Source: a virus
Direction: 5' to 3' (one strand)
DNA length: 13,455 bases
UHGV virus genome: UHGV-0114979
Shown here: positions 6,363-8,564 of the stretch, in pieces
How the letters are laid out: every line of letters starts with the position of its first letter
How positions within the stretch are numbered: the first letter of the stretch is position 1
Translations under genes and position numbers: made by a program
Notes under the pieces: generated by a model
What the model was told of the DNA's origin: nothing
The model's input: the letters and a program-made list of their open reading frames with translations, nothing else
The model's database searches: none

Positions 6363-8564
6363 ATGACAGACATTACAGCCAATGTTGTAGTGAGCATGCC
6401 TTCGCAACTCTTCACTATGGCGCGTTCTTTTAAAGCCGTAGCCAATGGCAAAATTTATATCGGTAAAATTGACACTGACCCGGTAAATCCTGAAAACCAG
6501 ATTCAGGTTTATGTGGAGAACGAAGACGGTTCTCACGTTCCTGTATCACAGCCAATCATCATTAACGCCGCTGGTTACCCTGTATATAACGGACAGATTG
6601 CCAAATTCGTAACTGTGCAAGGCCACTCTATGGCTGTTTATGATGCATATGGTGCTCAGCAATTCTATTTCCCTAATGTGCTGAAGTATGACCCTGACAG
6701 ATTACAACAGCGACTTATTAGTCACTTGGATGGAAATGGAGATGCTTTAGTTGCTACTAAGCAACCTATTGCAGGGGCGAAAGATAAAACAGTACATGAT
6801 TGGATTGCTGAGCATGTTTCTATTAAAGACATGTATGGTGTTATTGGTGATGGTGTTAACGATGATGCGCCTTATATAATTACTGCACTATCCAACCTAT
6901 TGATATCCTGTAATCCTGTTGTATTTGTCCCTGGAACATATCTCATAAATTCAAACATTACATTTGATATCCCTGTGACATTTATTCGTGGAGCTGTATT
7001 AAAAGTAAGAAATGGTGCTGTAGTTAAATTTAATGCAGAAATTGATGCTGGAAGGTATGAGATATTTGACACAGAAGATGACTTTTTCAATAATTACTTA
7101 GAAACTCCATCTGTTAAGATACCAAATGGACCTGTTCGTATTGAGTGGTTTGGAGCTAAATCAGTAAGTAGTTATGCAGATATAGCGTCAGCACATGATT
7201 GTTCAGATGCTTTTTTAAAGGCATGGCATGCAACATGCGGAGAATTTAATGTGGAAATAACTCCTGGCGCTCTTTATCAGTCAGAGTTTTATCATTCATA
7301 TGTATCTTTATCATCAGGAAAATATAGAATGGATAAAAATCTAAAGCTATGGCATAGGGTTATTTCGCCATCTATCATCAGATATAATAAAAATGGAGGG
7401 GGGATAATTGGTGATGGAATGGGGTTGTCAATTCTTGTTTTTACAGATCCTAAGTATGAAGGAAATGCTTATGTTGAACTCAGTGATATGAGCGGAGAGA
7501 TGCATGAGTTTCGTGATTTTAAAGTGACATTCTATGATCCAAATGCTACAGGAGATGATATATATTTTGGTAGAGCTGGGGCTTGCATTCTGTTCTCTAG
7601 CGCAGATAGTATAGTTACAAAGAATATATGGGCTGCCGGAGCAAAATATCTTCGCACTGATATTGATGGGGTTCGTAGGGGTGGTGTGGGTATACAATTT
7701 GAGTCATTGGTAGACCATTTTTTCGAGAATCTATTAGTAGAGCACTGTATAAACGGTATTGCATTTAGTTCCTGTGTTTCAAATGGTTTTAACATTAAGG
7801 GATTCTCTAATAGAGTATCTGATCTGGCATTTGGTAATTATATACCAGCATGGCCAGATCTAATCACGCAAAATGGCGTAAATCTTGTATCTGTTTCTGG
7901 CATGGAGAGCAAGGCATGTCCTGCAACTCCTATTTATTTTGGGACAGTTGATAACAGGGTTAACATAACTAATGTTAATATTAAAGGGAATGCAGAATCA
8001 TCATCTTCAATAGTAACATTTAGAGCCATTGCGTTTAACCATGCTGGGGCCGGTGCAGTAGGATTGATTCAGGGCAATGTTATGAATGTGAACTACGGTC
8101 TTATTGATGACGGTGGAACAGCTTTTGCTGGTAAATCTGGTTCACCATTAAGACTAACTTTTAATGTTTATAATGTTGCAGGGAATTCCGCAACAGAAAC
8201 AGCTGTTGCTGTATTCAAAAACCCTTTGTCTAATGTCGATATTGATTTAGGTGTGAATGGCGCATTGTTTCCTGCGCTTATTAGCTCATGTAATTACGCC
8301 ATAGCCAGAATAAATATTGTTGGTATCACTGGGTCAAACTCAGCTCCCTACGTGGCATTCGGATGCAATGCAGGAATATTAATAATTAGAAGTTTGAAAG
8401 CATCAGGAAGTTCAGCAGCATACCTTGGCTATGCAGGAGGATCGTCTCAAGTCATTCTTCCATCTGCAATGTCAGCTGATATCACACTGGTTAGGAAAGG
8501 TTCAGGATCTTCTGCTGATATAAGACAGGAATCATCTTCACTTTACAACAATATTCAGTCTTAA
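6363..8564 (+). CDS. Tailspike protein: P22 gp9-type N-terminal head-binding domain fused to a divergent beta-helix receptor-binding/depolymerase module
   Basis: 733 aa. Residues 1-112 ([50 protein letters not shown]…[12 protein letters not shown]) match the P22 tailspike N-terminus as I recall it. From residue 113 (about nt 6699) the sequence diverges ([12 protein letters not shown]… against QYSIEADKKF… in P22). Downstream motifs such as [21 protein letters not shown] are typical of pectate-lyase-like right-handed beta-helix proteins. Has a good RBS and a terminator after the stop. Confidence 0.9.

Follow-up and report, generated by a model that had tools for sequence, protein, structure and literature searches.

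The window analyzed here is the whole of the virus genome UHGV-0114979, a stretch of 13,455 nucleotides (nt) that corresponds to a complete metagenomic contig (European Nucleotide Archive ERZ1755950 NODE_661, coverage 6.6). It contains a tailspike gene whose translated open reading frame (ORF) is 733 amino acids (aa) long (Table 1), against 667 aa for full-length gp9 of phage P22 (chain 8tvr_A), as a first-pass annotation made from the DNA letters had stated. Databases already contain many entries for the identical protein, under the name 'phage tailspike protein [Escherichia coli]'. Taken as a whole, the gene very probably specifies the receptor-binding spike of a temperate phage of the P22-like (Lederbergvirus) type, with a conserved tail anchor joined to an exchanged β-helix receptor module.

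The anchor is readily recognized. Residues 1–113 cover the entire Pfam profile PF09008 Head_binding (positions 1–113 of 113; E value of 6.5e-67), and a phmmer search against solved chains aligned aa 2–114 with the N-terminal structures of P22 gp9 (1LKT and 2VKY; E value of ~1e-50) and also recovered Sf6 gp14 (7SG7). These matches confirm the earlier assignment of the first 112 residues to the P22 gp9 N-terminal domain. The anchor is identical to P22 gp9 at 85 of 113 residues (75%); over 112 residues it differs from Sf6 at eight positions and from vB_EcoP-720R6 at two (~93–98% identity to the spikes of Sf6 and E. coli P22-like phages), and it lies nearer to the E. coli/Shigella subgroup (HK620, Sf6 and CUS-3) than to P22 itself. 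The anchor part is present in 1,137 of 5,426 complete E. coli genomes, and the whole gene in two.

Similarity to the known spikes ends abruptly behind this domain. The spikes of HK620, Sf6, CUS-3, vB_EcoP-720R6 and prophage PM06121 are alike through the motif NVLKYDPD, which ends at residue 112, and diverge straight after it. DNA identity to CUS-3 and 720R6, measured in 30-nt segments, is 76–93% over gene nt 286–345, drops to 50–53% over nt 331–360 and then stays at 20–40%, the random level. Megablast matches confined to the anchor, found in 23 phage records at 85–94% identity and including E. coli, Shigella and epsilon34 members of the P22-like group, all end at gene nt 336–349. Because protein divergence, the collapse of DNA identity and the megablast end points coincide there, we place the junction after codon 112, at nt 6698/6699, in agreement with the abrupt switch at about nt 6699 proposed in the first-pass annotation. 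Base composition changes at the same place: the G+C fraction falls from 0.438 in the head-binding part to 0.378 in the receptor part, as had been suspected from sampled lines of sequence, and the G+C fraction at third codon positions (GC3) falls from 0.429 to 0.235, a shift of 19 points.

The description of the sequence beyond the switch as unrelated to known spikes holds only in part. No similarity was found to the receptor domains of P22, HK620, CUS-3 or epsilon34: in the phmmer search, full-length P22 gp9 chains (8tvr and 2xc1) matched no further than query aa 114, with no homology to the P22 β-helix or C-terminal domain, and a tblastn search of aa 113–733 against 50,697 phage records returned no spike of the P22, Det7 or 9NA type. 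However, aa 119–192 are weakly similar to the start of the Sf6 β-helix (E value of 3e-4), and the linker motif L..L.S...G.GD.LVA.KQP is common to many other spikes, including relatives with other anchors.

The receptor module recurs behind anchors unrelated to that of P22. A translated search of the phage collection identified gp15 of Enterobacter phage Arya, a Jilinvirus with sheath and baseplate genes around this locus, whose residues 194–813 are 67% identical to query aa 114–732, and, in Kuttervirus vB_EcoM_JN03, a 1,097-aa spike with 52% identity across 88% of the module (aa 113–733). Both proteins, which are uncharacterized, belong to this receptor-module family from end to end, starting at the anchor/module junction, but they carry unrelated anchors (their own N terminus followed by PF18668) and belong to phages that are contractile-tailed and lytic or of other families, with Enterobacter sp. 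CT7 and a strain listed as E. coli O157:H7 as hosts. A large protein collection yielded 31 relatives of the module, with 50–72% identity for proteins with unrelated N termini. Their anchors are PF09008, PF18668 Tail_spike_N or no known domain, and in relatives lacking a P22-type anchor, homology to the query begins at aa 114–126.

The two halves of the gene also differ in how far they have diverged from their nearest counterparts. E. coli FORC_041 and JNE082640 carry the closest full-length copies in complete genomes, each in an argW prophage. Compared with FORC_041, the anchor has 24 mismatches in 336 nt (7.1%) and the receptor part 13 in 1,866 nt (0.70%; Fisher's exact test, 6e-12). The mismatch cluster of the anchor ends at nt 6656 and the next mismatch follows at nt 6918, so that the crossover falls within the 3′-terminal part of the anchor coding region, which is invariant. 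Occurrence of the module behind unrelated anchors, together with this ten-fold contrast in divergence, cannot be explained by gradual divergence of a single lineage. On these sequence comparisons, the receptor module is shown to have been acquired by horizontal exchange, with an apparent left crossover within the last ~40 nt of the anchor coding region. The earlier interpretation of the junction as a scar of modular exchange is thereby upheld, and the alignments that could have overturned it found no characterized tailspike with continuous similarity across the full length; the only full-length matches are uncharacterized genes in E. coli prophages that bear the annotation 'phage tailspike protein'.

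Table 1. Features of the tailspike region, in window coordinates.
Feature	Position	Strand	Basis or remark
Tailspike gene, 733 aa + stop codon	6363..8564	+	ORF list and translation
Head-binding (tail-anchor) domain, aa 1–112	6363..6698	+	Pfam PF09008 and structure matches
Likely crossover zone, most conserved 3′ end of anchor coding region	6657..6698	+	Mismatch pattern against FORC_041; protein identical in all P22-like spikes compared
Linker/neck, aa 113 to ~160, motif L..L.S.DG.GD.LVA.KQP..G...TVHDW	6699..6842	+	Low predicted local distance difference test (pLDDT) score (43–56, monomer model); motif common to relatives
Right-handed parallel β-helix, predicted glycan-binding/depolymerase body, aa ~161 to ~600	6843..8162	+	Boundaries approximate
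C-terminal β-rich region, aa ~601–733, the part of the module in which relatives vary most	8163..8561	+	Secondary structure of the model
Cassette shared with argW prophages of FORC_041 and JNE082640, 98.4–98.5%	6348..10101	.	blastn; flanks unrelated on both sides
Terminator-like hairpin between convergent tailspike and acyltransferase genes	8603..8625	-	Pattern scan, consensus match only
Acyltransferase_3 family membrane protein, 330 aa, predicted O-antigen O-acetylase	8635..9627	-	Pfam PF01757
Short conserved sequence (~54 nt), right end of shared cassette	10048..10101	.	~1,600 E. coli genomes at 92–98%, mostly 3′ end of intS

P22-type anchors joined to related modules (47–51% identity; relatives P0014–P0027) also occur in Salmonella, Citrobacter freundii and Xenorhabdus. 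The Salmonella carriers comprise S. arizonae serovars 41:z4,z23:- and 62:z4,z23:-, serovars Waycross and Bron, and S. houtenae. A different arrangement is found in a defective argW prophage (L016, positions 8001–10211; relative P0025), in which the reading frame of a NinB domain (aa 5–129, E value of 1e-37) continues into a receptor module of 47% identity. The two parts meet exactly at the module junction, behind a 'GDASLR' stub of the kind that characterizes PF18668-type spikes. The prophage retains its acyltransferase and integrase genes but none of the late genes.

To characterize the receptor part, we combined profile searches with structure prediction. The profile PF12708 Pect-lyase_RHGA_epim scores 26.9 bits at aa 154–208, against a gathering threshold of 27 bits and over only the first 59 of its 213 positions; scores among the relatives range from 24 to 34 bits. 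An AlphaFold2 model of aa 113–733, based on an alignment of the 31 relatives, has a mean pLDDT of 87.3 and a predicted template modeling (pTM) score of 0.87, and consists of ~40 disordered first residues, a capping helix and then a long series of short strands. Its structural matches include the AlgE4 epimerase module, a Geobacillus phage pectin-lyase-like protein, the Klebsiella K1 and E. coli K5 lyases, CBA120 TSP2, phi29 gp12 and many other phage depolymerases. Foldseek recovers proteins of the same class, with poor superpositions, and identity is 9–14% to the pectin-lyase-like enzymes (AlgE4 A-module, CBA120 TSP2, K1/K5 lyases and phi29 gp12) and at most 18% to any listed match. The receptor part is thus predicted to be a right-handed parallel β-helix in the pectin-lyase-like superfamily, for which no closely related structure has been solved, in line with the β-helix motifs reported for it previously.

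Residues D433, D451, H452, E460 and H461 are invariant or nearly so across the 31 relatives, down to 28% identity, and the conserved acidic and histidine residues D433, E460 and H461 are consistent with an active site. Toward the C-terminal end of the protein (aa ~601–733), identity to relatives at the 50% level falls to 10–40%. The closest variant (P0002, 733 aa, from a Logan contig) is itself mosaic within the module, being 95–100% identical over aa 113–232, 65–70% over aa 233–432 and 95–97% over aa 553–733. The pattern points to exchange of sub-domains, or else to diversifying selection, in the central β-helix, possibly in the binding groove.

Immediately downstream and convergent with the spike gene lies a gene for a putative acyltransferase, which matches PF01757 over aa 8–318 (E value of 1.9e-20) and has a G+C fraction of 0.307 against 0.43 for the window. 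The protein is 36% identical to the acyltransferase of Shigella phage SfII and ~26% identical to part of Sf6 Oac; searches of PHROG and phage databases placed it in no PHROG family and gave only the SfII protein, at 36%, as its nearest phage relative. The gene is present in two of the 5,426 complete E. coli genomes, exactly the two that have the receptor module, and every other contig encoding the identical spike also has the acyltransferase gene beside it. In L016, a 57%-identical acyltransferase adjoins the 47%-identical module. Receptor module and acyltransferase therefore travel and diverge together. Homologous exchange on the right-hand side may plausibly have used the short conserved sequence that closes the shared cassette, either as homology arm or as boundary sequence. 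In a promoter scan, promoter-like sites were no commoner than in shuffled controls; only the hairpins at 6202–6221 and 8603–8625 were noteworthy.

The strict linkage, the precedent of Sf6 oac and the survey of Pas et al. (2023; PMC10408124) lead us to propose that the acyltransferase would modify the O-antigen recognized by the spike and so confer superinfection immunity. In that survey, by Pas, Latka, Fieseler and Briers, anchors are conserved per genus and receptor domains are exchanged across genera, the spike type of a prophage tracks the O serogroup of its host, and an O-antigen modification gene often lies behind the spike gene. The Lederbergvirus anchor was defined there as residues 1–124 of the HK620 spike, and conserved recombination motifs were found only in lytic genera, not in Lederbergviruses (PMC10408124).

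The identity of the glycan can be approached through the hosts. The O-antigen cluster of FORC_041 is annotated with wzx and wzy of the O163 family, and JNE082640 is a Shiga toxin-producing strain of E. coli (STEC) that is negative for the enterocyte effacement locus (LEE) and typed OX21:H19 (PMC10793325). The OX21 and O163 gene clusters are 98–99.9% identical, and DebRoy et al. proposed that the two groups be merged (PMC4732683). O163-family wzy occurs in six of the 5,426 complete genomes and, at 100% identity, in exactly the two spike carriers; the chance that both carriers would fall among these six genomes is ~1e-6 (Fisher's exact test). From this host association, the E. coli O163/OX21 O-antigen is, by a modest margin over even chances, the probable target of the spike, and the association likewise supports the earlier expectation of a specificity other than that of P22. 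This serogroup is outside the 14 assigned by Pas et al. (PMC10408124). Within the literature searched, no paper links a tailspike to O163; the two words occurred together only in a general O-antigen review. The O163 cluster contains manB/manC and an fnlA/B/C-like gene set, representing mannose and FucNAc-type pathways, and lacks a pathway dedicated to uronic acid; this would make a hydrolase somewhat likelier than a lyase, although this is a weak indication.

We also considered the Salmonella relatives as a guide to serogroup. This route was rejected, as O groups 41 and 62, serovar Bron and Citrobacter are mixed at ~50% identity.

Several observations weigh against reading the protein as a trimeric, O163/OX21-specific depolymerase. 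Binding and cleavage of a glycan by the receptor module are predictions, as the module family is biochemically uncharacterized, and because relatives at ~50% identity span several O groups and genera, family membership alone does not fix the glycan. The 5-kb host flank of the two carriers is identical, with prophages that differ by 1.3–3.6%, so that the carriers may be one host lineage and represent between one and two independent events. The AlphaFold2 model is of a monomer, and both the trimer and the position of the active site are outside its reach. Lyases, hydrolases and epimerases all appear among its best structural matches, at ~12% identity, and with both lyase and hydrolase classes represented, no mechanism can be transferred. 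Finally, phrog_8280, which matches aa 1–311, is labeled as colanic-acid degrading.

That last label raises the alternative that the module targets a capsule or another exopolysaccharide, such as a K antigen or colanic acid, rather than the O-antigen, for which the endosialidase spike of CUS-3, built on the same anchor, provides a precedent. We regard this as unlikely: the phrog_8280 match consists mostly of the anchor and the first β-helix coils, which are semi-conserved among many spikes; in complete genomes the module is found exclusively alongside the rare O163-family O-antigen cluster, and the Acyltransferase_3 gene to which it is strictly linked belongs to the type that Sf6 and SfII use for O-antigen acetylation. 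The sub-threshold PF12708 match and the presence of non-enzymatic proteins (Vag8 and PfbA) among the β-helix structural matches would also fit an adhesin that binds its glycan without cleaving it. The near-invariance of D433, D451, H452, E460 and H461 is a pattern typical of an active site and makes such a function decidedly improbable; to our knowledge, moreover, all characterized P22-like spikes (P22, Sf6, HK620, CUS-3 and epsilon34) are enzymes.

A more radical possibility is that no exchange took place, and that in a single lineage selection preserved the anchor while the C-terminal part diverged from P22 gp9 beyond recognition. The fold may plausibly go back to an ancient common ancestor, given that all the receptor domains are right-handed β-helices and that weak similarity to Sf6 extends to aa 192. 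We nonetheless give this explanation almost no credence. The C-terminal part is 50–72% identical to proteins of other phage families with unrelated N termini, DNA identity falls from >80% to random within ~30 nt alongside the 19-point GC3 shift, and the module is ten times less diverged from FORC_041 than the anchor is, the opposite of what fast C-terminal divergence would produce.

The surroundings of the gene are those of a P22-like phage. Neighboring genes encode proteins with the Pfam domains Inj_translocase, P22_gp16, Arc, P22_AR_N/C, Acyl_transf_3 and integrase, and the tailspike gene follows the gp20/gp16 ejection genes and the arc/ant (immI) region and precedes the acyltransferase gene, attP and int, as in the late region of P22-like phages. 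The identical spike is encoded by E. coli prophages adjoining dacD, which are 99.7% similar to the window over 6309–10458. Similarity is lost beyond that point, which places the attachment site near 10458, within 9628–10656. Because the window joins the acyltransferase gene to the integrase gene across attP, it represents the non-integrated (excised or virion) form of the phage. The dacD-site prophages are otherwise near-identical to the window, apart from a loss of similarity between window positions 1881 and 5212. Within this interval, between the gp16-like ejection gene and arc/ant, window positions 3168–4499 hold two genes that are absent from those prophages: one for a P63C-domain protein (3450..4499, + strand; phrog_2384) and a small ORF (3168..3431, - strand) with a faint match to an EpsG-like membrane protein.

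The spike described here has the anchor, the junction after KYDPD and the gene position in common with P22 gp9, Sf6 gp14, HK620 gp9, the CUS-3 endosialidase and epsilon34 gp19, and, as in Sf6 (oac behind gene 14) and HK620, an O-antigen modification gene, here a predicted one, lies downstream. Its receptor module is unlike theirs beyond aa 114, save for the weak resemblance to Sf6, and its probable glycan is O163/OX21, whereas the known P22-like spikes recognize Salmonella O:4/O:9, S. flexneri Y, and E. coli O18A1 or K1. The head-binding domain plugs the spike into the tail machine, and the receptor module arrived by horizontal exchange together with the low-G+C acyltransferase gene downstream. 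By analogy with the family, a homotrimer with receptor-destroying activity is predicted, which would bind and cleave the host O-antigen and let the virion reach the outer membrane; after lysogeny, the acyltransferase would acetylate the same O-antigen and block superinfection by phages with the same spike.

O163 and OX21 were historically typed as separate, cross-reacting groups despite the near-identity of their clusters, and the only carrier with a published serotype is OX21, with an O-antigen cluster annotated as O163-family. One speculative idea, which we consider a long shot, is that the tailspike–acyltransferase cassette forms an O163-specific infection and seroconversion module and that prophage-encoded O-acetylation caused the historical split between the two serogroups, in parallel with the conversion of S. 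flexneri serotypes by Sf6 Oac.

The exchange of receptor domains behind a conserved P22-type anchor is a textbook phenomenon that has been described repeatedly, with the CUS-3 endosialidase spike as a known example on the same anchor, and conceptually nothing here is new. What is new is an uncharacterized receptor-module subtype and its inferred serogroup; to these our analysis adds a mapped crossover zone, a module shared with myoviruses, strict linkage to an acyltransferase and a testable O163/OX21 assignment. The locus is a clean worked example of an anchor/module junction, with a left crossover apparently confined to ~40 nt and a co-transferred O-antigen modification gene marking the right side. 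The subtype extends the catalog available for phage-based typing, diagnostics and engineered host range, and its probable target group, O163/OX21, includes LEE-negative STEC from hemolytic uremic syndrome patients.

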